Origin: Candidatus Colwellbacteria bacterium CG10_big_fil_rev_8_21_14_0_10_42_22
GTDB lineage: Bacteria > Patescibacteriota > Minisyncoccia > UBA6257 > Colwellbacteraceae
Direction of reading: 5' to 3'
NCBI GenBank assembly: GCA_002773725.1
Contig: PFAH01000002.1
Coordinates: forward strand, 59,590-123,589
DNA: 64,000 nt
Shown in pieces: positions 6,835 through 28,295 of this stretch. The stretch's first letter is position 1. The number at the start of each line of letters is the position of its first letter. The notes under the pieces were generated by a model. It was not told the origin of the DNA and made no database searches. It was given only the letters and a program-made list of their open reading frames with translations. The translations under genes and the position numbers were made by a program.

Positions 6835-6879
6835 TCCCTCCGACTATTTTGTGCGCGAACACACATTTCGTCGGAGGGA
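6835..6879 (-). terminator. 3' hairpin of GC-rich cassette 1
   Basis: TCCCTCCGAC...GTCGGAGGGA arms with an inner hairpin; no U-tract on the minus strand. Confidence 0.5.
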
Positions 6880-6935
6880 TTTTTCGGATCTTAGACAGAC
6901 CCGAATATAGCCAGGACGCTACCTACACGGAATCG

Positions 6936-8165
6936 TTACGGGATAGTCGGCTGACTACCACCACCCTCGGTGGTGGCGGACGACTCTGTCGGGATGGTGG
7001 GCTGTCCGGAGCAAGCTTCGGGGTTCTCCACCTCCGGGACGTTGAACCTATAGGAGCGACTCGTCGATGCTCCAAGGTTGTCCGTCGCCGTCACGGTGAC
7101 GGTGTGCCGACCCAAGTAGTACGGGCCATTTGCCAGAGAGAACACAACCGACCTCACGCCGTCTGGATCGGAAACGTTCGCTCCGAAGACGACCTCTGCG
7201 AAACCTTCACAATTCGTCTCCCCGAGCGTCGCCGAAATCGAGATGATTTCAGGGCCGACATTTGGGGTCGTAGTCGTGGTCGGTTCAGTGGTCGTCGGCA
7301 CCTCGGTCGTCGTCGAACCCTCGGTGGTCGTCGTTGAGCCACCACCCCCTCGGGTTGTCGGCGGTTCATAGGGCGCCGTCGACGAAGGAACCTCGCAGGT
7401 GCGGCATGGAATGCCGCACTCATTGAGAACGCCGAGCACCATCAGACGAAACTCGTCCGCTTCCCACGCTCCGGGGTGATCCAGAAGATGAGCATCGATG
7501 AGGGCGTACACCCTGTCGATGTCTCCTTGGATGTAGCCGAGCTTTTCGCTCAGCCACCCGCGAAGATTCGCGATTTCCTGGTCGTTGCCAGCCACGTCCG
7601 CCTTCAGGGCGCCAACACGCGGACCGAAGTCGAGTGTGAACCGCTCGAAGTCAGAGCGAAGGTTGGCGATGGAAGTCACGACTCCGTCGATGCGGTCGTC
7701 GACGGCGCTGATATCACCGGCATTCCGGCCGGCGATGGCGAGCGCCAACACCGTGCCAATCGTGGCGATCAAGATCGCCACGGCACCAAGACCGGCGAGG
7801 AACCGACGACCGTTCCGGCCGTGGGCCTCACCCCGCAAACGCTCATCGCGCTCGCGGTCGAGGTCTCGACGGAGCCGGTCTTCGACGGCCTGATCGGCCG
7901 CCTGGACTTGACCCCAGAGACGACCGAATGCGTTTGTGATCGCATTCGCCGTCTCTCCCGGAATCCGAGCCACGTCGGCACGGATGTCGGAGACCGCGGT
8001 CTCCACTGCATTGATACGGCGACGCGCCGACTTGTCTTTGGACATCTTGTTTCCCTTCTTTCGGGGAGCCTGACGCTTATGGTGATAACAGTAGGGCGGG
8101 TTGGTACCCACTCTAATGCGATTACCGCAGTGGGCTCCGTCCTTTCTATTACCATTGCACAGCAT
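6936..8165 (-). CDS. GC-rich ORFan single-pass membrane protein: CCCH zinc-finger-like N-terminus, coiled coils, TM, Thr-rich linker, small Ig-like domain
   Basis: Longest ORF of the islet; GAGGAGG at 8171-8177 precedes ATG 8165; C.G.RKDG..C.N...YC.HH; TM FLAGLGAVAILIATIGTVLALAIAG. Confidence 0.75.
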   Translation of the reverse strand: MLCNGNRKDGAHCGNRIRVGTNPPYCYHHKRQAPRKKGNKMSKDKSARRRINAVETAVSDIRADVARIPGETANAITNAFGRLWGQVQAADQAVEDRLRRDLDRERDERLRGEAHGRNGRRFLAGLGAVAILIATIGTVLALAIAGRNAGDISAVDDRIDGVVTSIANLRSDFERFTLDFGPRVGALKADVAGNDQEIANLRGWLSEKLGYIQGDIDRVYALIDAHLLDHPGAWEADEFRLMVLGVLNECGIPCRTCEVPSSTAPYEPPTTRGGGGSTTTTEGSTTTEVPTTTEPTTTTTPNVGPEIISISATLGETNCEGFAEVVFGANVSDPDGVRSVVFSLANGPYYLGRHTVTVTATDNLGASTSRSYRFNVPEVENPEACSGQPTIPTESSATTEGGGSQPTIP

Positions 8166-8188
8166 CAGACCCTCCTCTCTAGGGAGTG

Positions 8189-8240
8189 CTAGCATGTGCT
8201 AAGTGTCCACCATTTCTGACGGACACTTAGCACATGCTAG
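8189..8240. repeat. Perfect 20-bp inverted repeat in the cassette 1 leader
   Basis: CTAGCATGTGCTAAGTGTCC-12 nt-GGACACTTAGCACATGCTAG. Confidence 0.92.
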
Positions 8241-8358
8241 GTGTAGATTTTTTGTCCTGCTATTTTCCTATATGAATAGGTTGATAAATGTACAAAGCAG
8301 AAAGCGACAGAATTACTGCCTTTTACCTCTTATTTGGTACTTTCTACCATATGGTAAG

Positions 8359-8387
8359 TTTATACCACGACTTGACTAAAAAGTCAA
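8359..8387 (-). promoter_or_regulatory. sigma70-type promoter of cassette 1
   Basis: TTGACT-17-TATAAA with extended TG; the -35 lies inside the palindrome CTTGACT-AAAA-AGTCAAG. Confidence 0.65.
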
Positions 8388-8494
8388 GACATATGTGGCC
8401 ATTACTATTCTACCTCGTTAGAAGCAGGGCGCAAGAGTACGTCCGACAGCTCCCTAGGGGTAGCTTGATTTTAACGGGGCTCAAGTAAACGGGA

Positions 8495-8523
8495 TTGACT
8501 ATATCCCCATAATTACTGATAAT
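8495..8523 (+). promoter_or_regulatory. Probable rpmE-prfA promoter
   Basis: TTGACT-17-GATAAT. Confidence 0.55.
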
Positions 8524-8663
8524 AAGCCCGTTAAACCTTATGCCGTTAGAGATTATTATGTATTACGCATACGTAATACATAGCAAAAAGGGGTTTTAAT
8601 GAAGAATTTTAGATTTCTTTAAGCTAATCTAATCACGAAGTCATTACAAATAAGTTAAATTTA

Positions 8664-8987
8664 ATGAAAAAGGATACCCACCCAACATACTACAAAAACT
8701 CAAAAACTCTGTGTTCATGCGGGAAAACGCATGAAATTGGCTCTACTCGGGAGAAAATGGAGGTAGAAATTTGTTCTAACTGTCACCCCTTCTTCACGGG
8801 TCAAGAACGACTTGTTGATACTGCTGGAAGAGTAGAAAAGTTTAAGGCGCGACGAGCGAAGGCGGAACTCACAAAGGCATCTATTAAAAGCAGGTCTGCT
8901 TCCAAAAGAAAACCAAAAATAGCCAAAACCGAAAAAATTAAGCCCACTAAGAAACCCAAGAAGACCCCCGAAAAGACATCCAAGTAA
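8664..8987 (+). CDS. rpmE: 50S ribosomal protein L31 (Zn-binding form) with a Lys-rich C-terminal extension
   Basis: MKKDTHPTY, CSCG, CSNCHPFFTG, DTAGRVEKF. Confidence 0.97.
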   Translation: MKKDTHPTYYKNSKTLCSCGKTHEIGSTREKMEVEICSNCHPFFTGQERLVDTAGRVEKFKARRAKAELTKASIKSRSASKRKPKIAKTEKIKPTKKPKKTPEKTSK

Positions 8988-9036
8988 ATCCCCCGAAAGG
9001 CGCTTACTTTGTAAGCACCACGAGGCAGGTGGACCT

Positions 9037-9777
9037 ATGAGTGACAAAGCAATACTCGAAATAAGGGCTGGTGCGGGCGGTGACGAAGCCGCTATTTTTG
9101 CGGGCGACCTAGCCCGCATGTATCAGCGTTTCGCTGAAAATGAGGGTTGGAAATTTACTGTTTTAGACACAAGTCAAACCTCCTTGGATGGCTATAAATC
9201 TTTCGTGGCTCAAATTAGGGGTGAGGGAGTATATGAAAAACTTAGGCAGGAATCTGGAGTACATCGTGTCCAACGTATTCCTAAAACAGAAAAGTCAGGC
9301 CGTATTCATACGTCAACTGCTTCTGTAGCAATAATGCCCGTAGTTGAGGCCCAAGAAGTAGCTATTAATCCAAGCGATCTAGACGTTTCTTTCTTCCGTT
9401 CAAGTGGTCCGGGTGGTCAAAACGTTAATAAAGTAGAAACGGCCGTAAGGATAGTCCATAAGCCAACCGGGGTTGTTGTAAGCTCGCAAGCTGGACGAAG
9501 TCAACAAAGTAATCGTGAGGTTGCCCTAGAGGTCCTTCGTTCTAAACTCTATGAAGCTCAAATCGAGAAACAGGGGCAAGAGATGGGAGAGTTGAGGCGT
9601 AGCCAAATAGGATCAGGTGACCGATCGGAGAAGATTCGCACATACAATTTTCCTCAAGACCGCATCACCGATCATCGTATCGGTAAGAAGTGGCACAATT
9701 TAGAAAAAATCCTTGAAGGAGATATAACGCCCATCATTAAGGCCTTTCAAAAAGCTAAAAAGGAAAGCGAGGGTTAA
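9037..9777 (+). CDS. prfA: Peptide chain release factor 1 lacking N-terminal domain 1
   Basis: ILEIRAGAGGDEA, ESGVHRVQRIPKTE (PxT), GGQ, RSEKIRTYNFPQDR. Confidence 0.93.
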   Translation: MSDKAILEIRAGAGGDEAAIFAGDLARMYQRFAENEGWKFTVLDTSQTSLDGYKSFVAQIRGEGVYEKLRQESGVHRVQRIPKTEKSGRIHTSTASVAIMPVVEAQEVAINPSDLDVSFFRSSGPGGQNVNKVETAVRIVHKPTGVVVSSQAGRSQQSNREVALEVLRSKLYEAQIEKQGQEMGELRRSQIGSGDRSEKIRTYNFPQDRITDHRIGKKWHNLEKILEGDITPIIKAFQKAKKESEG

Positions 9778-9780
9778 AAA

Positions 9781-11220
9781 TTAACTTTCTAATAGCTTGA
9801 TATCTCTCTCGAATTGAGCTGCATGCTCTATAACGGCACGCCCATAAACATCGGTGCACACATATCTTTGCCAATTACCTCCACAATAATATCTAGCTGC
9901 CGCAGCCAACTCGTTTGATGAAGCTCCAGAATCTTTAAGATAAAGTCCTGATGCTACGAAGGCGTCCAAATTGTTCCACGGATTGGCGGGTCTATTGCCA
10001 GTTACCGCCTCCACGCGCGCCTTATACCCTATCCAAGTTGATGGAATGAACTGGGCAGGACCCATTGCGCCTCCATAAGATCCGTCTGATGTAATCGGAC
10101 AAGAGACATAAACTTTGTCCGGGTCTATGTTCAGTTCTTTTACGATTTGTAAGAATGGAGTTATATCGTCTCGTCTGGATTCTGGGGGTCCAGGCGCCAT
10201 AGCGGTCTTATAATTACACTGCCCCACATTCCTACCAAGGGCGGACTCTCTATCAAGCACAGCCAAAATAAGAGCAGCCCTCACGCCCGTTCTCTTTTCT
10301 GCATACTTAGCAAAATTGTAGGCCTCTTCAAATGTCATTTGCCCACCACCCAATAGGCGAAAGATTCTAGCTCTAATTTCAGCAGCGCTTCTTTCGGTAA
10401 CGGTTAGGAGTTGTTGGTAAGTGGCCTCTTCGCCCTTGGTCACATTAAGCAAGGTGTCTTTTTCTGACTTCACAGAATCAACTTCCTGTTTTTGCTTAAC
10501 CTGATAAAGACGAAGCGCCTCCACGTCGGATTTCTCAAGAGCCAGTATTTCTTTATGAGTAATCAACTCCTCTTGGGACTCGGCAAGCTCTATTAGGGTA
10601 TCTTTTAAGCCCTCTTGCACCACCAGAAGATCATTAACGCTAGTAAAGAAATCGGAAAGGTTTTGGTTAGCTAATAAGATTTCTAATATACCCTTTTCGT
10701 CGTCTCGGTTCATTCGTTGAACTACGTCCGAAAGGATGGTCTTGCTACGCCCGATCCTGCTCCTAACCTCTTCTATTTTTGAGGCAGTGCTTTTGATTTG
10801 TCCATTTAATTTATTTAAAGAAGAATTAATTGTATCTATCTGGCCATTAATACTGGCTATACGAGCATTGAGGCGGTTTATCTCTCCCTGAAGGGTGTCT
10901 CCCTTTTTTTGATATTCTTTAATCGTCTCCTGATATTGCTCTATCTGATATTCATACTGTTGAAGTTGGTCTTCCAGCTGTTCACGTTCTTGCTCAACAG
11001 TTAAGGCCCTAACACCTCCGCCAATCGGAGCAAAAACAGAACCGTTGGTCATAAGCACAAATCCAATAGCCACCAAAGTTCCTAAAACAGGCCTTATATA
11101 AGGAACTCGTGTCTTTGTCTTAGAGATAGGACTCAAGTTAACGCGCCCCGAACGTGGGGCAAAAACATCAACCCTCGACCCTCTCCTTATATCTATCAAT
11201 AAGCGAGGTTTGGGTCTCAT
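9781..11220 (-). CDS. Coiled-coil protein with a C-terminal lytic transglycosylase (MltB/SLT_2-like)
   Basis: TM segment, long heptad region, LAVLDRES, GAMGPAQFIPSTW, ANPWNNLDA. Confidence 0.88.
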   Translation of the reverse strand: MRPKPRLLIDIRRGSRVDVFAPRSGRVNLSPISKTKTRVPYIRPVLGTLVAIGFVLMTNGSVFAPIGGGVRALTVEQEREQLEDQLQQYEYQIEQYQETIKEYQKKGDTLQGEINRLNARIASINGQIDTINSSLNKLNGQIKSTASKIEEVRSRIGRSKTILSDVVQRMNRDDEKGILEILLANQNLSDFFTSVNDLLVVQEGLKDTLIELAESQEELITHKEILALEKSDVEALRLYQVKQKQEVDSVKSEKDTLLNVTKGEEATYQQLLTVTERSAAEIRARIFRLLGGGQMTFEEAYNFAKYAEKRTGVRAALILAVLDRESALGRNVGQCNYKTAMAPGPPESRRDDITPFLQIVKELNIDPDKVYVSCPITSDGSYGGAMGPAQFIPSTWIGYKARVEAVTGNRPANPWNNLDAFVASGLYLKDSGASSNELAAAARYYCGGNWQRYVCTDVYGRAVIEHAAQFERDIKLLES

Positions 11221-11318
11221 TGCTATTTATTATAACGTATCAAGGGCCCCCTTAGTTAGCGTCTTTGTCCCCTAAATCAGTTTTACCGATCGGGCAGACC
11301 ACCTCCTTGAGCGACGCT

Positions 11319-12002
11319 TTAGGCGTTTAGCTTGGCGGTTTTATCCTCATCATCATCTTCACCTTCTTTTGTTTCGCCATCTCTATCTTTCTTCTCGCCT
11401 TCAACCTCAATATCTTCTGGAGATAGCTCTTCCTCTAGCTCCTCCTCTTCTTCTCTCGGCTCCGTAATGCTTGCCACTACTGTTTCGTCATCCGTTAATA
11501 TTTCAAACTTAGCTCCAACTTTTAGGTCAGCCACCGTAATCGATTTACTAAAGTCATCTAAGACAGAAATGTCCACTTTTATCTCGTGAGGAATGTCTGA
11601 CGGCAATGCTTCTACTTCTACTTCATCCAAAACCTTGTTTAAGATTCCACCCAGTTCCTCAACTGCACGTGATTCTCCAACATATTCCAAAGGCACATGA
11701 GTCGTTACCTTTTTCTTTAAATCAACTTGGTAAAAATCAATGTTTAAAAGCTCGTCCGTAACAGGATTAATGTGAACTTCGTGAACTAATACCGGCCTTG
11801 TCTCTTCACCAAAAACCAAATTTATCATAGTGTTTTCTCCGGCCTCTTTATAAATTCTGGAAAAGTCGGCTTCTTTTATCTGAAGATGTTCGTTTTGGGC
11901 ACCGCTTCCATACAATTCAGCAGGAATCAAGCCATTTTTACGTAGGGTTTTTGTTTTTTTACCTAAAATTTCGCGCTTTTGCGCCTGAATCTCTAAAGTC
12001 AT
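11319..12002 (-). CDS. rplY: 50S ribosomal protein L25/Ctc
   Basis: LRKNGLIPAELYG, NIDFY, P.DIPHEI.VD, acidic tail. Confidence 0.96.
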   Translation of the reverse strand: MTLEIQAQKREILGKKTKTLRKNGLIPAELYGSGAQNEHLQIKEADFSRIYKEAGENTMINLVFGEETRPVLVHEVHINPVTDELLNIDFYQVDLKKKVTTHVPLEYVGESRAVEELGGILNKVLDEVEVEALPSDIPHEIKVDISVLDDFSKSITVADLKVGAKFEILTDDETVVASITEPREEEEELEEELSPEDIEVEGEKKDRDGETKEGEDDDEDKTAKLNA

Positions 12003-12013
12003 AGCAGGAGGGA

Positions 12014-12886
12014 TTATAGCATCCCGTTAAACAATTTCAATCTGTCTTTAACCACTTCATACACCCCCTCTTCTGATGCTGGGAAAACTTTATAAGGAGC
12101 TACTTGGGTTTTATCTTCCAACGCTCCTTCTATACCTTTGCGCCAAGCTACTCTTAATTCTGTATTTATATGAATTATGCGTATCCCCGCTTCTATGGCA
12201 GATCTGAAATCCTCGTCACTAATACCCGAACCGCCATGCAAGACCATGGGCACGCCGATTGATTTACCAATTGAACGAATCAATTCTATATCTAATTCGG
12301 GATTGGGAGTATTTTTAAACATTCCATGGAGATTGCCTACTGCTGGAGCAACTAAATCTACTCCCGTTTCTTCCACAAATCTTTTAACTTCTTCGACTGT
12401 CGGTAGCGCATCCCCACTTACCACCGCTCCTTCGGGAACTTCCTCTAAAATCTTGGATGATTTTCCTATATATCCCAACTCTCCTTCCACAAACACATCT
12501 TTGTCTATTCTTTTAACTAAACCGACCGCTTCTTTTGTTTTGTTGATATTCTCTTCTAAACCCTCGCTGGCTACGTCAAAGATAACAGCATCGTAGCCAG
12601 CCACCACTGCCTCCTTTATTTTCTCTAAAGATCTAAAATGGTCAGCATTTAAAAATATTGGATGATCTAGTTCTTTGCGAGCGTCCAAAACCATTGAGAC
12701 AGCTACGTTTAAATCTATGAATTCTGCTTCGCCTTCAGAGGTGCCAATGATTACAGGCACGCCCAACTCTTTCGCAGCTTTAGTAATGCCATGAAAAGCC
12801 GCTATGTCTGAAGTATTAAAATGCCCTAAGGCCACCTCTCTTTCTTTAGCCCACTCAAGAGCAGCTCTTAAAGTTTTTATCTTCAT
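12014..12886 (-). CDS. fba: Class II fructose-bisphosphate aldolase
   Basis: LNADH, EGELGYIG, AVGNLHG, VLHGGSG, INTE. Confidence 0.93.
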   Translation of the reverse strand: MKIKTLRAALEWAKEREVALGHFNTSDIAAFHGITKAAKELGVPVIIGTSEGEAEFIDLNVAVSMVLDARKELDHPIFLNADHFRSLEKIKEAVVAGYDAVIFDVASEGLEENINKTKEAVGLVKRIDKDVFVEGELGYIGKSSKILEEVPEGAVVSGDALPTVEEVKRFVEETGVDLVAPAVGNLHGMFKNTPNPELDIELIRSIGKSIGVPMVLHGGSGISDEDFRSAIEAGIRIIHINTELRVAWRKGIEGALEDKTQVAPYKVFPASEEGVYEVVKDRLKLFNGML

Positions 12887-13878
12887 ATTTTACAGGGCTT
12901 ATATGATTTTGGAGCTCGAGCTAAATATGACTCAAGCTGATGTTTAATTAGAAGTCCTGCCCTAGCGCCGGTTTTCTGCACTACTGCCATTGAATTAATG
13001 GGGGCTCGTAGGAGCGCTTCTTCGATAGTGCCATTGCCAGCTAAAATAGCAGTGAAAGTGCTTGAGAATGCATCTCCTGCCCCGGTTCTTTCAAATGGAG
13101 GTTTGGAATCAGGATAAATAGGCATGAACCAATAATTGCCACCCTCTTTTACGTAGGCGCCCTCTTTACCATCCGTAATCACAACTATTTTAGGACCGAG
13201 TTTAGCTAAATTGTTTAAAAGTTTCTTAATATTCCCTTCTTTGGTATTGAGAATTCTTTGCGCCTCTTCTTTGTTAGAAAAGAAAAGTTCTGTGTGACGA
13301 TATATGCCCCTTAACTTCTCCTTGCCTAATTGCATCTGGAAAGTGCCTGGCTGAAAAGCAAGTTTAACTTTTGGGTGTTTTTCTAAATATTTTTGAACCT
13401 CCTTATGAAAAGAAAGCGTATTTTCCCCAACAGAAGAAAAGTAAATCCATTTGGGCTCGCCGATGAAAGGTAAAGAGTATTTGTATGTTTCGTGTTTAAT
13501 AAGGATTGTTCTCTCTCCCTTGAAGGATAAAACGTAGTGGTAGTTGCTCTTCTTGCCTTTGTGTACCTTTATAAAATCTTTGGCTACTTTCTCTTTTTTA
13601 AACACAGCTAGGGCCTCTTCTCCGTTTCTATCGTCGCCGATATTTGATACAAAGGCACTCTTGAGGCCTAAACGGGCGGCACAAACGGCAGCGTTTGCGG
13701 CGTTGCCAACTGCTGGCACTACTTCTACGCTTTCGTAAGGTATCTTATCTGCAAAACGCATACAAATTAGTTTGTTACCGTGGTCAATACTGTGGACCTT
13801 CGCCTCTTGAAGCTTGATGAAGGCATCTGTGGTCTGATCGCCGATGGCGATGAAATCATATTTTGTCTTATTTGCCAT
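12883..13878 (-). CDS. PfkB/ribokinase-family carbohydrate kinase
   Basis: GNAANAA...ARLG, ITDGKEG, RTGAGDAF. Confidence 0.92.
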   Translation of the reverse strand: MANKTKYDFIAIGDQTTDAFIKLQEAKVHSIDHGNKLICMRFADKIPYESVEVVPAVGNAANAAVCAARLGLKSAFVSNIGDDRNGEEALAVFKKEKVAKDFIKVHKGKKSNYHYVLSFKGERTILIKHETYKYSLPFIGEPKWIYFSSVGENTLSFHKEVQKYLEKHPKVKLAFQPGTFQMQLGKEKLRGIYRHTELFFSNKEEAQRILNTKEGNIKKLLNNLAKLGPKIVVITDGKEGAYVKEGGNYWFMPIYPDSKPPFERTGAGDAFSSTFTAILAGNGTIEEALLRAPINSMAVVQKTGARAGLLIKHQLESYLARAPKSYKPCKI

Positions 13879-17837: not shown

Positions 17838-18302
17838 CTATTCAAATCGAATGCTAACATCTGTACCCTTTTTTATACCTAGAGCACTAGCTCTACCCGA
17901 TGCTATTTCCAACACGTAATTTACTCTCTGCGGAGAGGGATATCTCTTCTTTTTATAAAGTGGCACATTAATCTCGGGATCAACCCGGTGCTCAACTCCG
18001 ACCACTTGATTATCTTTAATCCAAATAATATCTATAGGGATTAACATATCCTTCATCCAAAACTTTCTATTTGTAGGTGAGTCAAAAACAAAAAGCATGC
18101 CTTCGTTTTGAGCTAACGCATCTTCGCCCCCCAAACCCTTAGCTTGTTGAATGGCCGTGTTTGCGACATCTACCCTAAACTCCTGCCCACTGACCACAAT
18201 GGTCGCCTTTTTATATTGCGCTTTTGGTAACCAATCGCCTCTTAGAAACCAAAAGATAAGAAACGCTGTTGCTACTAATCCTAATATATAAATGGATTTC
18301 AT
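17838..18302 (-). CDS. DUF192 family protein
   Basis: GL...GMLFVF...FWMK..LIPIDIIW...YVLE. Confidence 0.9.
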   Translation of the reverse strand: MKSIYILGLVATAFLIFWFLRGDWLPKAQYKKATIVVSGQEFRVDVANTAIQQAKGLGGEDALAQNEGMLFVFDSPTNRKFWMKDMLIPIDIIWIKDNQVVGVEHRVDPEINVPLYKKKRYPSPQRVNYVLEIASGRASALGIKKGTDVSIRFE

Positions 18303-18772
18303 TTTTTGTTTTTATATTTCAAATTATACGCCACGATACTAAAGGCGACGGCTACGTTTAAGGATTCTTTTATGCCTCCCATTGGAATCTCTAACACCTT
18401 GTCCGCTCTTTTTAAAACAGAAGCCGGCAATCCTCTCACCTCATGCCCCATCACTAGAGCGTATCTCTCGTTTTTAGGGATGTATTTATAAAAAGGAATT
18501 GAGTTGTCCGCCTGTTCAATCGCTATAACTTGGTAGCCATCTTTTTTAAGTTTGTCTAAAAGGCGAGTGGTAGAAACACGTTTTTCATACGACACGGATG
18601 ATTCTGAACCCAAGGAGGTTTTTAAAAATTTAGGTCTTATTCTCCCAAGTTTATCCAGGGGTGAGGGCGTAACTCCACAAAGATATATTTTCTCCACGCC
18701 TAAAGCATCGGCTGTTCTAAACACAGAGCCGGTGTTGAACATGCTTCTTACGTTGTCCAAAACTACTATCAT
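18299..18772 (-). CDS. TrmH/SpoU-family RNA methyltransferase
   Basis: NTGSVFRTADA, MGHEVRG, IPMGG..ESLNVAVA. Confidence 0.93.
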   Translation of the reverse strand: MIVVLDNVRSMFNTGSVFRTADALGVEKIYLCGVTPSPLDKLGRIRPKFLKTSLGSESSVSYEKRVSTTRLLDKLKKDGYQVIAIEQADNSIPFYKYIPKNERYALVMGHEVRGLPASVLKRADKVLEIPMGGIKESLNVAVAFSIVAYNLKYKNKK

Positions 18773-18796
18773 TTATCTAAATCATAACACTCAAAA

Positions 18797-18867
18797 ATAA
18801 AACAAGACCCACGTAGGGTCTGTTAGAGGAAACGGTAGGGATGAAACCCTTTCCGTTCCCTCCAACG
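18797..18867 (-). terminator. Tandem hairpins and terminator of cassette 2
   Basis: GTTGGAGGGAACGG...CCGTTTCCTCTAAC, then AGACCC-loop-GGGTCT-TGTTTTATTTTT. Confidence 0.65.
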
Positions 18868-18868
18868 A

Positions 18869-19255
18869 TTAGTCGATGGAACGAAGTCCGTTGAGGCGAC
18901 GCATCACCTCTCGTGGAATTTGGTCGAATTCTTCGATCTGAAGAATCCTTGTTCCACCGGCACAGTTGCGCTTCGTGACTCCCTTCAGGCATTCACCCTC
19001 AAGGAGAACACGGCCTGTATGACAGGAGACATCCCTCCGCAGACGGACGTCATATGCCAAGGCCCTGCCTCCAAGAAAGTTGACGGGTGGATCAAATTCC
19101 CCCTGAACTCTGCGATGGTCAGGACCATCATCAGTCCACTCGTCGCCACGAAGGCGCTGGCGCAATGCATCCAAGATGTAGCGGAAGATCATCTCTTCCT
19201 CTCCTATCGAAGGCGCATCGCCCAATCTGTAGTAGTGGGTACGTTTACTTCCCAC
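18869..19255 (-). CDS. GC-rich ORFan (cassette 2), 128 aa
   Basis: AAAGGAAG before the GTG start; promoter TTTACA-18-TATAAA at 19315-19344; terminator right after the stop. Confidence 0.65.
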   Translation of the reverse strand: MGSKRTHYYRLGDAPSIGEEEMIFRYILDALRQRLRGDEWTDDGPDHRRVQGEFDPPVNFLGGRALAYDVRLRRDVSCHTGRVLLEGECLKGVTKRNCAGGTRILQIEEFDQIPREVMRRLNGLRSID

Positions 19256-19354
19256 GGTTTTCTTCCTTTCTTCCCCGCCGTGGGCTCTCCTTCTAGCGAC
19301 AGCGCTAGATTGTTTTTATATCACATTCAATAGTTTTGTGTAAACCCCAAAAAC

Positions 19355-19384
19355 AAAAAAAAGCCGTTCCATATGGATACGGCT
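19355..19384 (-). terminator. Terminator of cassette 3
   Basis: AGCCGT.TCCA-TA-TGGAACGGCT followed by a T-run. Confidence 0.75.
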
Positions 19385-19457
19385 CCTGGGAATTGATTTA
19401 AAGACTCAATTCCTACAAATTCCGGCTTTCGGAATCTGCCCCATAGGTCTTTGGAAG

Positions 19458-19583
19458 CTATTGCCTCTCATTCAACTTCTCCTTCTCTTTCTCAGGATCT
19501 GACGCTCCCTGAAGAGCGCAGAACAGAAGGAGAAGCGCGATTCCGACAAGGAACGCGACCACTCCAAAGATGACCCATCCCAT
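19458..19583 (-). CDS. 41-aa single-TM small protein, not in the ORF track
   Basis: GGGAGGAGG then ATG; MGWVIFGVVAFLVGIALLLLFCALQGASDPEKEKEKLNERQ. Confidence 0.7.
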   Translation of the reverse strand: MGWVIFGVVAFLVGIALLLLFCALQGASDPEKEKEKLNERQ

Positions 19584-19653
19584 TTCCCCTCCTCCCAAGG
19601 GTTTTAAGGAGGGGCGACCAGCGCGGTCGCCCCTCCGGGATTATGCGAATTAC

Positions 19654-19851
19654 TTACTCGTCCGGACTTCCCAACACAAGGGTGATGTAGTAAATCCCTG
19701 CCCCCACAAGGGCAAAAATCAACGAATCGACCCAAACGTTGGCTGTCGGATTCAACTCCTGCCAACCATCCACGCTCTTAACGAGCCAAACGATGAACAG
19801 GTAGAAGGCCCCGAAGAAGAAGACCCGACGGATAAGAGAATACCGTTGCAC
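19654..19851 (-). CDS. 65-aa two-TM small protein (cassette 3)
   Basis: AGAGGA 6 nt before GTG; two hydrophobic helices. Confidence 0.68.
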   Translation of the reverse strand: MQRYSLIRRVFFFGAFYLFIVWLVKSVDGWQELNPTANVWVDSLIFALVGAGIYYITLVLGSPDE

Positions 19852-19958
19852 GATACATCCTCTCTGTAATCCGCCCGCTTTTTCACCCCGGTGGTAATGT
19901 GCGTATCATAAGAATTCCAGCGCGGAACCCTGTGCCTAGACCTTCTAGACACACGTTT

Positions 19959-19987
19959 ACACTACCATATTTGATATCCTTTGTCAA
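19959..19987 (-). promoter_or_regulatory. sigma70-type promoter of cassette 3
   Basis: TTGACA-17-TAGTGT with extended TG. Confidence 0.65.
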
Positions 19988-19999
19988 TTCACTATTCGG

Positions 20000-20070
20000 T
20001 GGACCTAGGCGGAATCGAACCGCCGTCTGCGCAATGCGAATGCGCTGTTCTACCACTGAACCATAGGCCC
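20000..20070 (-). tRNA. tRNA-Ala(CGC), CCA not encoded
   Basis: Cloverleaf; G3-U70; anticodon loop TTCGCAT; followed by CCG. Confidence 0.95.
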
Positions 20071-22104: not shown

Positions 22105-22105
22105 A

Positions 22106-22180
22106 TGGTGTCCCCGGAGGGATTCGAACCCCCAACGGCTGGTTCGAAGCCAGCAATGATATCCATTTCACCACGGGGAC
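22106..22180 (-). tRNA. tRNA-Arg(TCG), CCA encoded
   Basis: GTCCCCG...CGGGGAC-ACCA; anticodon loop CTTCGAA. Confidence 0.93.
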
Positions 22181-22266
22181 AAACGATGTTCCCGCAAGCA
22201 ATCGCGCCACGGGGACTTTGGCTTCGCGCATTCACGATAGCAAAATCCCATACTACTAATCAATAC

Positions 22267-22296
22267 AAAACACCCCGACTTGGGTCGGGGCGTTTT
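22267..22296 (-). terminator. Intrinsic terminator of the candidate ncRNA
   Basis: CGCCCCGAC-CCAA-GTCGGGGTG-TTTT. Confidence 0.8.
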
Positions 22297-22622
22297 GGTT
22301 TCCACTCGGTGCCTTCTCTCATGAGTCTGCGAAGGGGGGTTCGCGGACTCATGAGAGAAGCGGAGAGAGGACGAACGAGATTATCATTCGTTCCCTCTCC
22401 GTTGAAGTTTGTGGGGTGGTGGATGGACGTTAATCCACTGCGCTTTGACGCCAAGCAGGCGTGGGAGAACTTGTTCCCACAGGGACCATAACTAGCGTGT
22501 GGTCGTAACCACACGGCGCTCTAGCCGTCCTCTATCCACCACCCCGGCTAATTAATCCGAATATTCAGATGAATTAGTCGAAGTAGTGGAGCCACTCCAT
22601 CGTTTCAAATTTTCAGGGTACA
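22267..22622 (-). ncRNA. Candidate ~350-nt multi-stem non-coding RNA of unknown class
   Basis: Perfect promoter upstream, terminator at the end, at least 7 stems, no credible ORF. Confidence 0.65.
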
Positions 22623-22627
22623 CGTGC

Positions 22628-22656
22628 ATTATAACACAAGATATCCATTTTGTCAA
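22628..22656 (-). promoter_or_regulatory. Consensus sigma70 promoter
   Basis: TTGACA-17-TATAAT with extended TG. Confidence 0.88.
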
Positions 22657-22711: not shown

Positions 22712-22734
22712 TGTCTTTCTATATTAAGAGTTTC

Positions 22735-23067
22735 TTAAGAAAGAATATCTCTCATCGCCAACATCTCGTTTCTCAACCTGTCATTTAGGTCATCGTAAAA
22801 AGTCGGCATAGCAGAAGCATAAAGCTCTATTTTTTCTTCCATCTCCTCCGGCCTAGCCATTGATTCTTTTAAGTCCTTAAGTTGTTCGGTGGTTAACCTA
22901 TTAAGAAGCGTGTCTAGCACAATATCGTCAAAGTGGTCCCTGATTTTTTCTGCTAACACTTTTTTCTTTTTTTCATCAAGGCCCCGTAATTCAGAACTAT
23001 CAAGCACAACTGCTATCATGCTATCAAAGTATCTTTGTACATTTTTTTCTGTTAAATCTTCTGTCAT
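22735..23067 (-). CDS. Small acidic helical protein, DUF5663-like
   Basis: 110 aa; L..LDE..K..L...I......IV...L..L...Q pattern; starts 1 nt after the upstream stop. Confidence 0.65.
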   Translation of the reverse strand: MTEDLTEKNVQRYFDSMIAVVLDSSELRGLDEKKKKVLAEKIRDHFDDIVLDTLLNRLTTEQLKDLKESMARPEEMEEKIELYASAMPTFYDDLNDRLRNEMLAMRDILS

Positions 23068-23068
23068 A

Positions 23069-25135
23069 TTAAGATGATTTTTCCGTTAATATTTCTAATA
23101 AGGTCGCCCTTGTTCTAGCTCCAAAATTCATTTCATAACCAACAGGTATCGCTCTGTGGTCAACCCAATTTTCTCCCGTTACACCCGCTTCTGGCCAAGC
23201 AATCTTAGAATCCATACAAAGCGCCCTATCTATCCTTGCAATATCTGCATTCGTAAAATTACCTTCTCCGAAGAATTGGTCTAACCATTTGTGGCTCTCA
23301 TTCCATGGGTTAGACCCCTCCATCAAAGAAAAGTTTCTTGGCAACATGCCGATGGTCTCCGGGATACCATCCATGGCGCTAAGAGCATCTTCTCCCGAAG
23401 CTAATTCGTGCATAAACCCGTTCATACCCGACATATCTAGGGCCCTACTACCAGTGAATATCTCATCTGCACCAGCCGGACCGTATATCTGATCAAGTCC
23501 CAAACCATTGCCTTCCATCACTTCAGATAAAGCGCCTTGAAACTCTAATGGTGTCGGTTCTACGCCATTAACGTCTACAAAGTATTCTCTGACGGCATCT
23601 GCTATCGAGCTACCCTCGGGAACGTCAACGCTAGCAAGCTCTCCTTGAAGAGGAATATATTCCGGAACACCAGCAAGCCCACCATCGGCACCAATATCAA
23701 TTATCGATTCTCCGGTTCCTGGAACACCAGCAATCTCCCCAGGATCAATACCACTCCCATCAGGCACACCAGCATCTCCAACCTCAATTACAATTGGGTT
23801 AGGACTACTGGTAGCTTCGGCCTCGCCTAAAAGGCCCAACTTCTTACCCAAAGCTTCCGTTCCTTCATCAACCGCCGCTCCGCCAGCCCCCCTAATCGCC
23901 TCTATTACTTCTAATGCGGCTGCCGCTAAACCACCACCAACTGCTCCCCAAATAGCACCTCTTTTGGCTGCCTTTAATATCCTGGCTCTTGTTTCACCTT
24001 TAGCAGCTCGAATTTCTGCAATCAAAGCCATCCTTTCGGCGGTCTCTGGATCAATTTCAGGCGTGCTCTCTTCACCTCCTTCAATATCCATATCCCCCAT
24101 GGCATCAACCATGCTTTCGGGAGTTTCCAACTTACCCATCTTTTTACCCAAGGCCCAAAGGAGATGTCTACGCCTATCTCTAATATGTTCAACCGCCCTT
24201 ATTCTTTCCCGTGCCTCTGCTTCCTCAAGTTGTTTTTCTAAAAGCTTCAACTCATTTTTAATATCGACTTCTGATAATTCTCCTAAACCACCCTCACCTT
24301 CATTCAGTTCTTTAATAACTCTCCTACGAGCAAAAGTTTCTGAAACTCTTTCTCGAATTGCACCCGACGCATAGCCAGCTGCAGCACCACCACCAACTGC
24401 TCCAATAAAACCACCGAAGACAAAAAAGGCCGTTCTAGCTCCTCGACGAATAACCATTCTAGCGGCGCCACCGGCAACACCACCGGTCAAAAATTCCGTT
24501 ACGGGTTTACCAAAAATTTTAGTTTCTCCTAAACGAGCGCTTAGCTTGCCAAGAAAACCCTTTCCTTCTTTATCTGCCTCGGCTTCTTTTCTAAGGGCTT
24601 CTAATAAAAACTCTCTTAGCTCCTCCGGGTTTTCAGAACGAGAGCCCTTGCCACCCAAAAGTCGATATTGTGCTTTTAACAACTCCTCGTCTGTGGCTCT
24701 CTCTACCCACGCCTCCAGAACTTTGGCTCCTTTTTTATCAATTTGCTCCCGAAGCCTAGTGGTGCCTTTAATTCCTTCTAATAGTTCTCCGCGAACGGCT
24801 TCTTGCGTAGCGATATAATCATCGAGTGATTCTAATAATCTAGCCCTAATTTCTTCTGGATCACCCGTTAGAGCACCTTTGCCCACTAATCTACCTTTAG
24901 CAAAACGAGCTACATCTTCCGGGTTCAGCATGGCCAGGGTTTCTCGCCAACCCTTCAACGATTCTAAATCAGAATATTCCCTAGCTAGTCGTTTTTGATA
25001 TCCTGAACCTATCCTAAAAGCTGGACCCTCTGGTTCTTTCTCAACTTTCGGCTCTTCAGCCGGCTCTTCCAGGTCTAAACCTTCTTCTGTATCAGAATCC
25101 TCGCTCCTTCCTCTGAATTTATCGAAAAATCCCAT
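23069..25135 (-). CDS. Large hypothetical protein with Gly-zipper hydrophobic segments and two degenerate LysM-like C-terminal units
   Basis: 688-aa ORF; GGVAGGAA, GGFIGAVGGGAAAG, GAIWGAVGGGLAAAA. Confidence 0.7.
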   Translation of the reverse strand: MGFFDKFRGRSEDSDTEEGLDLEEPAEEPKVEKEPEGPAFRIGSGYQKRLAREYSDLESLKGWRETLAMLNPEDVARFAKGRLVGKGALTGDPEEIRARLLESLDDYIATQEAVRGELLEGIKGTTRLREQIDKKGAKVLEAWVERATDEELLKAQYRLLGGKGSRSENPEELREFLLEALRKEAEADKEGKGFLGKLSARLGETKIFGKPVTEFLTGGVAGGAARMVIRRGARTAFFVFGGFIGAVGGGAAAGYASGAIRERVSETFARRRVIKELNEGEGGLGELSEVDIKNELKLLEKQLEEAEARERIRAVEHIRDRRRHLLWALGKKMGKLETPESMVDAMGDMDIEGGEESTPEIDPETAERMALIAEIRAAKGETRARILKAAKRGAIWGAVGGGLAAAALEVIEAIRGAGGAAVDEGTEALGKKLGLLGEAEATSSPNPIVIEVGDAGVPDGSGIDPGEIAGVPGTGESIIDIGADGGLAGVPEYIPLQGELASVDVPEGSSIADAVREYFVDVNGVEPTPLEFQGALSEVMEGNGLGLDQIYGPAGADEIFTGSRALDMSGMNGFMHELASGEDALSAMDGIPETIGMLPRNFSLMEGSNPWNESHKWLDQFFGEGNFTNADIARIDRALCMDSKIAWPEAGVTGENWVDHRAIPVGYEMNFGARTRATLLEILTEKSS

Positions 25136-25207
25136 TTGCTTTAAATATCATATATATAGGACTATAAATCAATTCTGTTGTCCACAATAACTGTTAAAAT
25201 AAGATAG

Positions 25208-27340
25208 ATGTCTGAGATTAAGCTACTCGACCCTTTAGAAAACGTAGCTAATGGTATTCAAAAACGTTTTTTAAACCATCTTTCACGCATGGGTATTAAA
25301 ACCGTTAAGGACTTACTTTGGCACTTCCCCGTTCGTTACCAAGACCGGTCCGAAATCTCCAATATCTCCGGACTAAAGGAAGGCGAAGAGGCCACTATTT
25401 ACGGCATTGTCCAAAGCGTAAATACTAGGCGCATCCCTACCCGCAAATTAACTCTCACCGAAGTCCAAATAGCCGACGATGAGGGCAAGGTCATGAACCT
25501 CACTTTTTTCAATCAATCTTACGTAGCTAACGCCCTCACTCCCGGTAAATCTGCCAACTTCTCCGGCAAAGTGAAAGAATATAAAGGCAAGCAAACACTC
25601 CAATCTCCCATTTACGAGTTCACAAAGGCGCGCGGAAAAGAAAAAGAAACCCAACATACTGGTCGTCTCGTCCCAATTTATGGAGAAACCCGAGGACTTA
25701 CGTCTCGCGGTATTCGCTATATTATCAAACCCCTTTTAGACAATCTTGAGAAACTCCCCGAATACATCCCAGCTAAAATATTAAAAGATTTAGGCCTACC
25801 CGATATTAACGTTGCTATCCAAGACATCCATTTTCCCAAAACACAAAAGGATGCCCTCAAAGCACTTGAAAGTTTTGCTTTTCGTGACTTGTTTCTTCTT
25901 CAGCTTCGCAATGCCGAAGAAAAACAACGCCTCCGCGAAGAACAAGCTCATCAAATTACATATACGGACAAAGAATTAAAAGAAATCTTAAGCTATTTAC
26001 CTTTCGAACTCACGGCTTCTCAAAAGAAATCCCTCGACGAGATTCTTCAAGATATAAAGATGGGGCACCCCATGAATCGCCTTCTTCAAGGAGATGTGGG
26101 CTCTGGCAAAACAATTATTGCCGGCATTGGCGCCCTCCTTACAGTTCGTCGAGGATACCAATCTGCCTTCATGGCACCTACCGAAATCCTCGCCCGCCAA
26201 CATTTCAAAACACTTATTAAATTTTTTGAAGAATACGATGGAGGCATCGCCCTTCTTATCTCTAAAGAGGCGCGCGTCTTCTACGGCGATGGACTTGAAT
26301 CAACGGTTAAAAAATCCGAACTGATTAAAAAAATCCGCACAGGCAAAGTGGGTATTGTTATCGGCACTCACGCCCTCATCCAGAAAAATGTTGTATTTAA
26401 AAACTTGGCTTTCGCCGTAGTAGATGAACAGCATCGCTTCGGCGTTGGTCAACGCGCCAACTTGGCTGGAAGTGAGAAGATTTTGCCCCATTTTCTTTCT
26501 ATGAGTGCTACCCCTATCCCACGTACCTTAACCATGACAATCTTTGGCAATCTTGATCTTTCTCTCATCAACGAACTCCCTAAAGGTAGAAAATCCATTA
26601 TCACTAAAATTGTTGATGCCAAAAATCGTAATAAAGCATATGACTTTATTCGCGAACAAATTAAATCAGATCGGCAAGTATTCGTAATCTGTCCTCGTAT
26701 TGAAGATCCCGAAGAACAAGTTGAAACTACTTCTAGGCAAAAATCTGCTTGGGCTGTTAAAGCTGTTAAAGTTGAACACGAAAAACTATCTAAAGAAATC
26801 TTTCCAGAATTCAACGTGGTCATGCTCCACGGCAAATTGAAAACCGAAGAAAAAACAAAAGCTATGCGCGCTTTCGCTGAAGGTAGGGCGGATGTCCTCG
26901 TTTCGACATCTGTGGTGGAAGTGGGAGTCGATATTCCCAACGCCACCATCATGATGATAGAGGGCGCTGACAGATTCGGCCTCGCTCAACTCTACCAATT
27001 CCGCGGGCGGGTCGGCAGGGGTGAACATCAATCGTATTGTCTACTTTTTACGGACTCTAAATCTACTCAAACCCACGAACGTCTTAAGTCGCTCGTTACC
27101 GCTAAAAACGGCTTCGAACTTGCAGAGATGGATCTTAAACTTCGTGGTCCCGGAGAATTCCTGGGGCAAACCCAAACTGGCATGCCCGACCTAGCTCTTA
27201 AAGCCCTTCAAAATCCGGAACTTCTCAAAACTGCCGAAGAGAAAACAAAAGACCTCCTCAAAGAAGACCCTCAATTCAAAAATTCTCCTCTTTTAGAAAA
27301 GAAACTCGCACAATTCAAGCGCGAGATTCACTTAGAATAG
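25208..27340 (+). CDS. recG: ATP-dependent DNA helicase RecG
   Basis: MNRLLQGDVGSGKT, DEQHRFG, SATPIPRT, QFRGRVGRG, DLKLRGPGE. Confidence 0.98.
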   Translation: MSEIKLLDPLENVANGIQKRFLNHLSRMGIKTVKDLLWHFPVRYQDRSEISNISGLKEGEEATIYGIVQSVNTRRIPTRKLTLTEVQIADDEGKVMNLTFFNQSYVANALTPGKSANFSGKVKEYKGKQTLQSPIYEFTKARGKEKETQHTGRLVPIYGETRGLTSRGIRYIIKPLLDNLEKLPEYIPAKILKDLGLPDINVAIQDIHFPKTQKDALKALESFAFRDLFLLQLRNAEEKQRLREEQAHQITYTDKELKEILSYLPFELTASQKKSLDEILQDIKMGHPMNRLLQGDVGSGKTIIAGIGALLTVRRGYQSAFMAPTEILARQHFKTLIKFFEEYDGGIALLISKEARVFYGDGLESTVKKSELIKKIRTGKVGIVIGTHALIQKNVVFKNLAFAVVDEQHRFGVGQRANLAGSEKILPHFLSMSATPIPRTLTMTIFGNLDLSLINELPKGRKSIITKIVDAKNRNKAYDFIREQIKSDRQVFVICPRIEDPEEQVETTSRQKSAWAVKAVKVEHEKLSKEIFPEFNVVMLHGKLKTEEKTKAMRAFAEGRADVLVSTSVVEVGVDIPNATIMMIEGADRFGLAQLYQFRGRVGRGEHQSYCLLFTDSKSTQTHERLKSLVTAKNGFELAEMDLKLRGPGEFLGQTQTGMPDLALKALQNPELLKTAEEKTKDLLKEDPQFKNSPLLEKKLAQFKREIHLE

Positions 27341-27354
27341 ATATCCATAAATTA

Positions 27355-27383
27355 GAGGAGCCCGACTTGGAGTTGGGCTCCTC
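27355..27383. terminator. Hairpin between convergent recG and cassette 4
   Basis: GAGGAGCCCGACT-TGG-AGTTGGGCTCCTC. Confidence 0.65.
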
Positions 27384-27390
27384 ATCGGGC

Positions 27391-28221
27391 TCATATGGGC
27401 GATTTGACCTCGGCGACGAAAGTCGCACCACCAGACCACACGGCGGGGAATCCGGCAGCGTCAAATCTGAATTCACGCGGATTGTTGACAATTTCTACGA
27501 AGGACTCGGTTTGTCCTCTGCGAAGAACTTCTCGCCGAACCTTGTCCAACACCTCCTTGGACAAGTCGCCGTCCAAGGAACGAACACCCCTCATCTTGGC
27601 AGTGTTGATGTCAAGAACAACATCGGCAGAGAAAAGCTGTTTGGGATGTTTTCCAACCGGGAACTTCGCGGACACCCCATTTTCCTTGAAGAAAATGGGG
27701 TCATAGAAGAACCACGGCCTCATGACAAATCGTTCTCCGGGGTAGAAGACCTTCCCCTGAAAGACAACGATGTGCCCCTTGCTTATCACGGGGCGAGACC
27801 AAACGGTCAGCTGGCCAGCAACTGCGACGGCTATGGAAATCAGGGTCCCATAGATAATCACCCTGGAAGCGGGCTCACTCAGGTTGGCTTATTTGGTCAC
27901 CCCAATCCCCAACACGAGCATGAAAAAGCCGAGTAGACCCGCCGCAAAGGTCGCTACACCACAGACAAATCGCAGAACATTCTGCCACCACGCTCCGCCG
28001 TAAACCACGACGGAACGAGAGAAATTTGTCCACCAGAAAAGGGGCGTCATTACCCACGTGAGAGCAACCGAACCAACAACGATCATCCAGGGTGTGAATC
28101 CCGCGTAATCGGAGCGCATCGCCACGTCCAATTGCATGAACCACGAAAGGAACCAAAAAAACCCCGAGAGCAAAACCCCCATAATGGGAGTGAACCAATT
28201 CAAACGCTTCTCTTTCTTCAC
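27391..28221 (-). pseudogene. GC-rich ORFan membrane protein (cassette 4) split by one in-frame TAA at 27889-27891
   Basis: ORFs 27889..28293 and 27391..27861 share a frame with 9 sense codons between them; GGAGG 6 nt before GTG 28221; TTGACA at 28288-28293. Confidence 0.6.
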
Positions 28222-28295
28222 AATAGACCTCCAGTCCATGTTGAATATGTGTAGAACTACGAACTTCGTACAATATTCATAATAGAATGTCAATT

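Follow-up and report, generated by a model that had tools for sequence, protein, structure and literature searches.

Introduction

Phage morons and acquired islets are self-contained units in which a gene is enclosed by its own promoter and terminator, and Agrobacterium T-DNA as well as the early or host-takeover genes of phages are kept in one genome and written for the machinery of another cell. The present work deals with a class of genes led by Shine-Dalgarno (SD) sequences in Candidatus Colwellbacteria bacterium CG10_big_fil_rev_8_21_14_0_10_42_22, a member of the Patescibacteriota whose ribosome lacks the anti-SD. The class came to attention through four coding islets in a stretch of 64,000 nucleotides, here called the window, in which an original prediction made from the letters had seen GC-rich, SD-led cassettes acquired by capture or kept for translation by host ribosomes. 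It is found here that these islets belong to a genome-wide class of about 40 genes, and that the SD of this class is maintained by selection.

Several described systems border on this one. The anti-SD motif was detected in 48% of Parcubacteria (Tsurumaki et al. 2022, PMC9297842); that paper, in its accessible part, treats rRNA, regards SD helices as thought not to form, and leaves an SD-led gene set unmentioned. Organisms without an anti-SD generally have SD-less genes (Amin et al. 2018, PMC6107228), and the accessible part of that account mentions neither Parcubacteria nor the candidate phyla radiation (CPR). In the part available of a study on horizontal gene transfer in aquifer Patescibacteria (PMC12455944), the terms 'Shine' and 'ribosome binding' are absent. 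Furthermore, the cultivated Microgenomatia parasite OT8, as the accessible text of its preprint describes it, sends tubes into its Chloroflexota host Mc4 and takes up host RNA; it has no phospholipid synthesis, and its codon use is complementary to that of the host, whose G+C lies in the range of 63-67% (bioRxiv 10.64898/2026.06.21.733656). The literature searched, outside which most subscription papers lie, yielded no account of a class of SD-led genes in Patescibacteria that lack the anti-SD.

Genomes and scoring

The genome under study (G000) comprises 551 kb in 10 contigs and is 98% complete by markers; the window is G000:C2:59590-123589, and its DNA is present in groundwater sequencing runs. 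Comparison was made with a genome of the same genus (G001), a sister genome (G002) and a likewise anti-SD-less genome of another family (G111). As G005 is available as one contig only, family-level counts rest on G000, G001 and G002. Genes were called with a custom caller and not with Prodigal (598 genes), and starts were picked ignoring the SD. The SD was scored against the canonical anti-SD tail, strong meaning -8.4 kcal/mol or better, and expected counts were taken from start-like triplets inside the same genes, that is, from local composition. For later class statistics, 106 genes (39 from G000) were picked on the basis of their G+C at third codon positions (GC3) and the presence of an SD anchor.

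SD-led genes in a genome without an anti-SD

The absence of an anti-SD from the ribosome, as claimed by the original prediction, was borne out.

2373-3851, minus strand: 16S rRNA gene, ending GTACGTGGAACAATTAAAC; the tail after helix 45 is GGAACAAUUAAAC, without CCUCC

The motif is also absent from 29 of 29 scored 16S ends (30 loci were fetched from the genus, family and order, of which 29 had the helix-45 motif), and the canonical tail 12-mer was not found in G000. In relatives the 12-mer gave 34 matches; none of the 10 examined lies at a 16S end. The tail itself is conserved across the order (L028-L057) as G(G/A)A(A/U)CAAUUAAA. An altered SD was considered and rejected because the 5' ends of core genes pair with the genome's own 16S tail no better than shuffles do.

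Most core genes indeed lack an SD: a strong one precedes 8 of 508 genes with GC3 below 0.5, where 23.8 are expected. By contrast, 18 of 39 genes with GC3 of at least 0.55 are led by a strong SD, against an expectation of 2.3 (Fisher odds ratio 54, p 3e-17 for the contrast). The pattern recurs in genes whose GC3 exceeds the median of their genome by 0.15 or more, with 23/55 in G002 (2.4 expected) and 11/28 in G001 (2.1 expected). Across the three genomes, a GGAG/GAGG core stands 3-13 nt before the in-frame start of 97 of 137 high-GC3 genes, at a spacing of 4-8 nt in 82 of the 97. Additionally, A is enriched at -3 to -1 before this core (p <1e-8 against anchors inside the same genes), and an extension to GGAGGT is weak (p 0.02). 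Motif and spacing would fit base-pairing to a bacterial 16S tail.

The class also has a coding style of its own. Computed at fixed amino acids and codons, TpA over codon junctions falls to 0.47, 0.61 and 0.67 of expectation in the three genomes, as against 1.01-1.02 in core genes, and TpC at the junctions of the class rises to 1.41-1.47. TTA, CTA, ATA and GTA are used at 0.14, 0.23, 0.39 and 0.48 of expectation (0.76-0.95 in the core), and class coding regions avoid TpA in every frame, which core genes do not. In the window, the TpA ratio is 0.14-0.68 in the islets and 0.69-0.88 in seven neighbours. Four-fold sites have a G+C of 0.62-0.69 in the class of all three genomes, whereas the core spans 0.38 to 0.53. 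ATA makes up one third of the Ile codons in core genes and 7-11% in class genes. The genome holds two tRNA-Ile genes with the rare UAU anticodon (C5:185-256 and C7:59721-59794). High expression was rejected as the cause of the GC3, because 15 conserved short genes have core-like codons, and RNA hydrolysis as the sole cause of the TpA loss is doubtful because CpA is not depleted. RNase E/G was not found in five genomes.

Moreover, class genes differ from core genes in how they are laid out. Their starts are more folded (-8.8 versus -4.8 kcal/mol), and a -10 box within 14 nt of the start is found in 0/106 of them versus 282/1112 core genes. Strong 3' hairpins follow 60/80 class and 39/120 core genes, and a stem of at least 12 pairs lies directly 5' of the SD in 18/66 class leaders compared with 12/120 in the core. 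Four class genes share a 23-bp leader hairpin (L202:330-415 on contig C7 of G000, and L082, L107 and L121 of G002) with compensatory changes in 8 of its 23 pairs; the G000 gene concerned has no homologue in G002. The core 14-mer of this hairpin occurs in 10 of 151 relatives, the reversed control in 4, and the pattern was not found in viral contigs. The units are dispersed over 8 contigs of G000 with median gaps of about 160 nt versus 18-32. Together with one tyrosine recombinase per genome, in G111 too, this dispersal differs from an integron-type array (attC models were not searched). One class gene with a GC3 of 0.84 (G000 C7:51171-53441, L205) lies about 1 kb from the only reverse transcriptase of the genome and is possibly the target of a diversity-generating retroelement, an arrangement that the islets of the window do not share.

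Maintenance of the SD between relatives

The class turns over fast, with a reciprocal match in G002 for 10 of 39 class genes versus 347 of 459 core genes. The pair lists were cleaned of core genes with a chance SD (5 in one list) and of two weak matches (245/577 and 415/293), which left 8 pairs. In all eight, an SD of -7.3 kcal/mol or better is present on both the G000 and the G002 side, mostly in differing letters, for example GAAAGGGG versus GAAAGGAGGG and GAGGAGGT versus GAAAGGAG. Their proteins are 28-71% identical, with fewer nonsynonymous than synonymous changes (dN < dS). The proportion of differing four-fold sites is 0.33 for islet 1 and 0.56-0.69 for the other seven pairs, compared with a median of 0.63 in the core. 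In a simulation of neutral decay at 0.65 substitutions per site, all eight SDs survive with a probability of about 1e-6. The SD is maintained by selection, and the decay in CPR copies that the original prediction associated with plain horizontal transfer is not seen between sister genomes.

It is very improbable that the SDs are a compositional by-product, in which GC-biased gene conversion or relaxed selection yields G-rich starts that only resemble them. Such an origin would agree with the fast evolution of class genes and their signs of recombination, but it is largely refuted by an enrichment eightfold over the genes' own composition, persisting against local composition where the original prediction had asked for a GC correction, and by the narrow spacing. 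Some SD-led members have a GC3 of only 0.35-0.46, dN stays below dS, and the avoidance of TpA is measured at fixed codon use.

Within the limits of the assembly, selection keeps the SD in a genome where no pairing partner for it was found. An unlikely explanation is that the resident ribosome does read the SD through an adaptor, be it a ribosomal or RNA-binding protein, a CCUCC-bearing small RNA or a second 16S missed by the assembly, so that the class is a translationally switched regulon. This would explain selection on the SD without any transfer step; the rRNA loci may be incomplete, as the 23S gene is missing from the assembly, and Bacteroidia are described, in the accessible part of PMC13000453, as retaining a few SD-led genes under protein control. 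It is opposed by the uniform lack of CCUCC and of the canonical 12-mer noted above, and by the absence of CsrA from the family (found in 0/25 genomes, and in 2/41 overall). The CsrA matches above the Pfam cut-off are in two anti-SD-less genomes of other families (G039:C1:68495-69044, with two copies in G039, and G040:C2:159861-160016). Furthermore, the SD letters shift in register against the sequence complementary to the canonical tail, which is what base-pairing would produce, and an adaptor leaves unexplained both the separate codon and TpA signature, which is distinct from conserved core genes too, and the lipoboxes of a genome in which Lgt was not found. Anti-SD-like words between the genes of G000 number 33 and are listed as sequence only.

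The four islets of the window

The original prediction was accurate in most of what it described here. All five SD sites and the three GTG starts (19255, 19851 and 28221) are in place, the extreme G+C counts of 43/60 (7801-7860) and 15/60 (13201-13260) are exact, and the islets are GC-richer than their surroundings, with 0.58, 0.52, 0.50 and 0.52 for islets 1 to 4 versus 0.42 for the window. The 3' hairpins reach z -4.0 to -6.5 against mononucleotide shuffles at all four. Promoter-like pairs also stand before all four, but those of islets 3 and 4 are weak taken alone (9/12): among random 260-nt windows a score of 10 is reached in 7/400 and one of at least 9 in 80/400, and a consensus promoter scanner listed none of the four. 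The claim that most products are membrane proteins holds, by eye, for the islets of the window and not for the class as a whole, since a transmembrane (TM) segment is predicted in 27% of 106 class proteins versus 32% of 1112 core proteins. Pfam, PHROGs and NCBIfam gave no name to the islet proteins scanned (the NCBIfam set being without the two small proteins of islet 3). The neighbours of the islets are core genes and tRNAs, and the islets lie outside any phage or prophage genome.

Islet 1 comprises a single gene with its signals.

8359-8387, minus strand: islet 1 promoter-like site TTGACT-17-TATAAA (10/12), hexamers and spacing the same in G002
8189-8240, minus strand: islet 1 leader hairpin of more than 20 bp, directly 5' of the SD, which is exposed in the centroid fold; kept in G002
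8171-8177, minus strand: islet 1 SD GAGGAGG (GAGAGGAGGG, -12.5 kcal/mol), preceding the ATG at 8165
6936-8165, minus strand: islet 1 gene for an orphan protein of 409 aa, GC3 0.70, TpA ratio 0.46
6835-6913, minus strand: islet 1 3' hairpins, z -5.6

The orthologue in G002 is syntenic, 56% identical and led by the SD GAGAGGAGGTGA (-17.4 kcal/mol). The protein has a Cys/His N-terminus, one hydrophobic segment, a Thr-rich linker and a C-terminal domain; because the N-terminus is kept in G002 and the database record of the protein has 409 aa, the start is placed at the ATG at 8165, and several protein searches used a query from 8159, two residues shorter. Compared with G002 (L060:8395-9741), identity is 46% at residues 1-150 and 90% at residues 291-409, and third-position differences fall from 27/60 to 18/107, so a recent exchange of the 3' part is possible. 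The family consists of four clusters in all, one labelled Patescibacteria, two unnamed and none named outside Patescibacteria. A metagenome scan gave merely two weak matches, both to the first 30 residues, and an Atlas search gave no usable match.

Islets 2 and 3 occupy the slot between spoU and tRNA-Ala.

19315-19344, minus strand: islet 2 promoter-like site TTTACA-18-TATAAA (10/12)
18869-19269, minus strand: islet 2 SD AAAGGA (19264-19269) and gene for a soluble orphan protein of 128 aa, GTG at 19255, GC3 0.55
18797-18866, minus strand: islet 2 3' hairpins, z -6.5
19959-19987, minus strand: islet 3 promoter-like site TTGACA-17-TAGTGT with a weak -10 (9/12)
19654-19863, minus strand: islet 3 gene 1, SD AGAGGA (19858-19863) and a two-TM protein of 65 aa, GTG at 19851, GC3 0.68
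19458-19596, minus strand: islet 3 gene 2, SD GGGAGGAGG (19588-19596) and a one-TM protein of 41 aa, ATG at 19583, GC3 0.61
19355-19440, minus strand: islet 3 3' hairpins with a U-run, z -5.8

Islet 2 has a second possible start, the ATG at 19192, with a stronger SD, and a 12-bp hairpin precedes gene 2 of islet 3. In contigs from two other groundwater runs, islet 2 is continuous with spoU (18281-19079) and islet 3 with tRNA-Ala (19594-20027), each with 0 differences, which argues against a chimera; among the other-run contigs listed, none bridged islet 1. An SD-led gene similar in size to gene 1 of islet 3 stands in the same slot in G001, G002 and G005, and homology of the islet 2 and 3 proteins to the same-slot genes of these genomes is not significant (p 0.08-0.89).

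Islet 4 carries an interrupted gene.

28265-28293, minus strand: islet 4 promoter-like site TTGACA-17-TACGAA with a weak -10 (9/12)
27889-28232, minus strand: islet 4 SD GGAGG (28228-28232, block GACTGGAGGTCT) and N-terminal multi-TM part of 110 aa, GTG at 28221, ending at an in-frame TAA
27391-27861, minus strand: islet 4 C-terminal part of 156 aa, in the same frame as the N-terminal part
27356-27383, minus strand: islet 4 3' hairpin, z -4.6

The in-frame TAA (27889-27891) interrupts a frame that is a single gene in relatives, where G001 and four other representatives have 267-285 aa. The SD block is identical in G001 though the proteins are about 30% alike. Six representatives of the family exist among 1.84 billion, none named outside Patescibacteria, and a likeness to SPFH is a weak, sub-threshold lead (Atlas, score 0.85).

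These islets bear on a second explanation, which is rather unlikely: the units would circulate in a shared mobile pool together with SD-reading organisms (phages, hosts and Patescibacteria that keep the anti-SD), their style being selected there, carried here as a passenger, and re-imported into the same insertion sites. The slot by spoU and tRNA-Ala, with its like-designed genes of no significant homology, speaks for such a pool, as do the uneven identity along islet 1 and the fact that most class pairs are not syntenic (synteny holds for 3 of the 10 reciprocal pairs and, among the 8 cleaned ones, for islet 1 and one other). It is countered by the tiny families of islets 1 and 4 with no named member outside Patescibacteria, by the promoter, leader and position of islet 1 kept in G002, and by the PHROGs search, in which 40 of 45 class proteins had no match and the five that matched include no islet of the window. 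In addition, TpA depletion begins at the start codon: the ratio is 0.45-0.51 in coding sequence and 0.90-0.99 over the preceding 150 nt. Neither feature of the style is present in the mobile island of contig C1, with a strong SD in 0/14 and a TpA ratio of 0.96.

Other features of the window

Release factor 1 (9037-9777, plus strand) is just 246 aa long, and its match to the PCRF profile starts only at position 101. With copies of 247 and 244 aa in G002 and G111, the order as a whole seems to lack the N-terminal part. Palindromes of the CCCGAC...GTCGGG type, resembling repetitive extragenic palindromes, recur at 22273-22290, at 27356-27383 and just beyond the 16S end. On the minus strand of 22180-22656, a perfect TTGACA-17-TATAAT is followed by about 400 nt of GC-rich, hairpin-rich DNA with no SD-led open reading frame and no real Rfam match. 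It is a candidate non-coding RNA upstream of tRNA-Arg and tRNA-Lys, part of which is 72-81% alike in G001 and G002.

Products and origins of the class

A Pfam match was obtained for 8 of 40 proteins from outside the window (39 class-like and one core paralogue), namely two HIT proteins, an AstE-like protein, HPRT, an SPFH protein, a CDP-alcohol phosphatidyltransferase, an Lrp/AsnC domain and a weak hydantoinase domain. Several of these products are without their usual partners. In G000, G001 and G002 the gene of the PgsA-like enzyme has the class style, and neither CdsA nor PlsC was found in these genomes; CdsA occurs in 7 of 151 relatives, 4 of them above the cut-off. PRPP (phosphoribosyl pyrophosphate) synthase was not found alongside HPRT (0/5 genomes), nor were Lgt and LspA alongside the lipobox proteins (0/5 each; the lipobox pattern gives 2 clear cases). 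Absences in incomplete genomes are no proof, and scavenged substrates for the orphan enzymes are possible. Among the 21 of 37 PgsA-like matches examined, which as kin are not independent, the copies without a cytidylyltransferase-like neighbour are SD-led in 12/17 cases, four of the five exceptions forming one clade. Four copies do have such a neighbour; the SD is lacking in three of them and borderline in the fourth. Several SD-led copies have a GC3 of just 0.35-0.45.

The origins of the class are mixed. HPRT has its nearest named relatives in Acidimicrobiia or Actinobacteria (67-73% identical) and at that closeness is present in G000 only, 1 of 151 related genomes, the rest yielding one match of 41%. 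The lipoprotein of G001 is a member of a widespread family of phage proteins (224 viral matches, 938 phage records). When the SPFH protein, the G000 lipoprotein and the gene next to the reverse transcriptase were used to scan viral sequences, no locus was obtained. These two imports, together with the presence of ComEC, agree with a mobile pool. On the other hand, in a four-genome PgsA-like clade (85/84) the SD persists along branches about 1-2.5 changes per site long, and the 17 relatives of the AstE-like gene in the genome collection are core-style: 15 are labelled Patescibacteria, one is unlabelled and one is a contig labelled Gammaproteobacteria.

Two genes of Patescibacteria type appear to have acquired the style where they stand. 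The AstE-like gene (GC3 0.75, SD -5.8) has 277 codons, none of them ATA, TTA or CTA. In a tree of 20 rows its sister (92/89) is the core-style G001 copy, and all rows but its own, 19 in number, have a GC3 of 0.18-0.58 and no SD beyond -6.9. The class-style HIT gene has its best match in 151 genomes in the adjoining core-style gene (40%, 96 bits; next 77 bits). The capture from a high-GC, SD-using donor envisaged in the original prediction is therefore right for some members and not for the class: capture occurs and does not explain retention, because islets 1 and 4, with which large protein sets were searched, have no close outside homologues, the SD is undecayed between sisters, and native genes seem to adopt the style.

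A host ribosome as the candidate reader

For the translation of the class by host ribosomes, either within the host or after uptake into the parasite, the case is about evenly balanced; reading in the host cell is by itself a tentative proposal, and reading by ribosomes imported into the parasite an unlikely one. The genome would then hold two gene sets for two translation systems. Core genes would be read by the resident anti-SD-less ribosome from their A-rich, weakly folded and often nearly leaderless starts. The class would consist of some 40 one- or two-gene units, transcribed from ordinary promoters of the sigma-70 type; the units carry hairpins at their ends, their SD is of the canonical bacterial kind, their codons tend to end in G or C, and UpA steps are scarce in them. 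The most likely reader of the SD would be the 16S rRNA of a bacterial host. By one route, class mRNA or DNA would enter the host via a contact structure. By the other, host ribosomes acquired with host cytoplasm would translate class mRNA inside the parasite, so that the class is on only during attachment. Captured host and phage genes and rewritten native genes would both feed the class. Reading by host ribosomes is favoured by the enrichment, spacing and retention of the SD, the apparent in-place switches, the coding style, the folded starts and the lack of CsrA described above. Two outcomes that the original prediction had named as refuting, loss of the enrichment on correction for composition and decay of the SD, did not occur. 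In addition, the PgsA-like enzyme, HPRT and the lipobox proteins would need partners missing here, and the OT8 case could in principle, by analogy and as far as its accessible text goes, supply both a route and a reason for the loss of the anti-SD. In a possible but doubtful elaboration, the lost anti-SD and AT-rich codons would shield the parasite from translating eaten host mRNA, and the SD-led, hairpin-capped mRNAs would be delivered into the host and translated there as effectors, with lipid and purine enzymes, lipoproteins, and membrane and DNA-binding proteins as the proposed cargo.

Several observations weigh against reading by host ribosomes. The class is nearly absent from G111 (1/16 with an SD, 0.6 expected, in 420 of about 560 kb), in which the TraG/VirB4-like ATPase and ComEC are present as in all 5/5 genomes. 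An export signal common to the class was not found, the long stem occurring in just 18/66 leaders. The codon style, with AGR at 33% of Arg codons and CTC favoured over CTG, was matched to no host. The missing 23S gene means that recovery of rRNA from G000 is incomplete. Since few class pairs are syntenic, some may be separate acquisitions, and for the closest pairs high GC3 alone is indecisive, since genes from a donor very rich in G+C that ameliorate slowly could show similar values. Nor does the lack of a substrate call for an SD, because a four-genome PgsA-like clade is SD-less and no CdsA above the cut-off was found in its genomes. The AstE-like case is qualified by its moderate SD, long branch, odd composition and support below the starred level. 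Lastly, OT8 belongs to another class and shows RNA flow from host to parasite only, and the main text of the preprint describes no host-style gene set.

The manipulation of hosts by Patescibacteria is largely unknown, and most are without a known host. The finding of a selected signal whose genome holds no reader for it points either to translation that crosses the boundary between cells or to some undescribed mode of SD recognition, and either would be new biology; delivery in the host would amount to effectors passed between bacteria as nucleic acid. Since the class can be called from sequence by SD, GC3 and TpA, candidates for genes that act on the host can be shortlisted. The identity of hosts may also be narrowed down from the codon style and captured genes of the class, Acidimicrobiia being a lead from one gene only.

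Comparison with known systems

Phage morons and acquired islets are like the class in being units of odd composition between conserved genes, and some class members are true imports. The moron trait of a promoter and terminator of its own round one gene is seen here by sequence match, two of the promoters being weak. A close donor homologue, the trait of recent imports, is found for HPRT and one lipoprotein but not for islets 1 and 4 or the AstE-like and PgsA-like genes. Unlike acquired islets, moreover, the class has undecayed signals, native genes appear converted to it, and the resident ribosome cannot pair with its SD. If host ribosomes were the reader, the class would be like T-DNA; however, no borders, relaxase target or single transferred block were found, the units are dispersed, and both partners would be bacteria.

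Among anti-SD-less organisms, the Parcubacteria, as the accessible part of PMC9297842 presents them, share the same loss, and the SD-led class is the addition here. The core genes conform to the rule of Amin et al. (PMC6107228, as far as accessible), and a maintained minority with canonical SDs is the exception. The SD-blind Bacteroidia with their SD-led rpsU (PMC7797042, PMC13000453, both in their accessible parts) likewise combine an SD-less genome with a few SD-led genes. In Bacteroidia, however, the anti-SD is present and hidden by bS21, bS18 and bS6, whereas in this genome the anti-SD is deleted and the SD-led genes are some 40 accessory ones with codons of their own. The class is thus real, maintained by selection and outside every known family tested, with an inferred mechanism.

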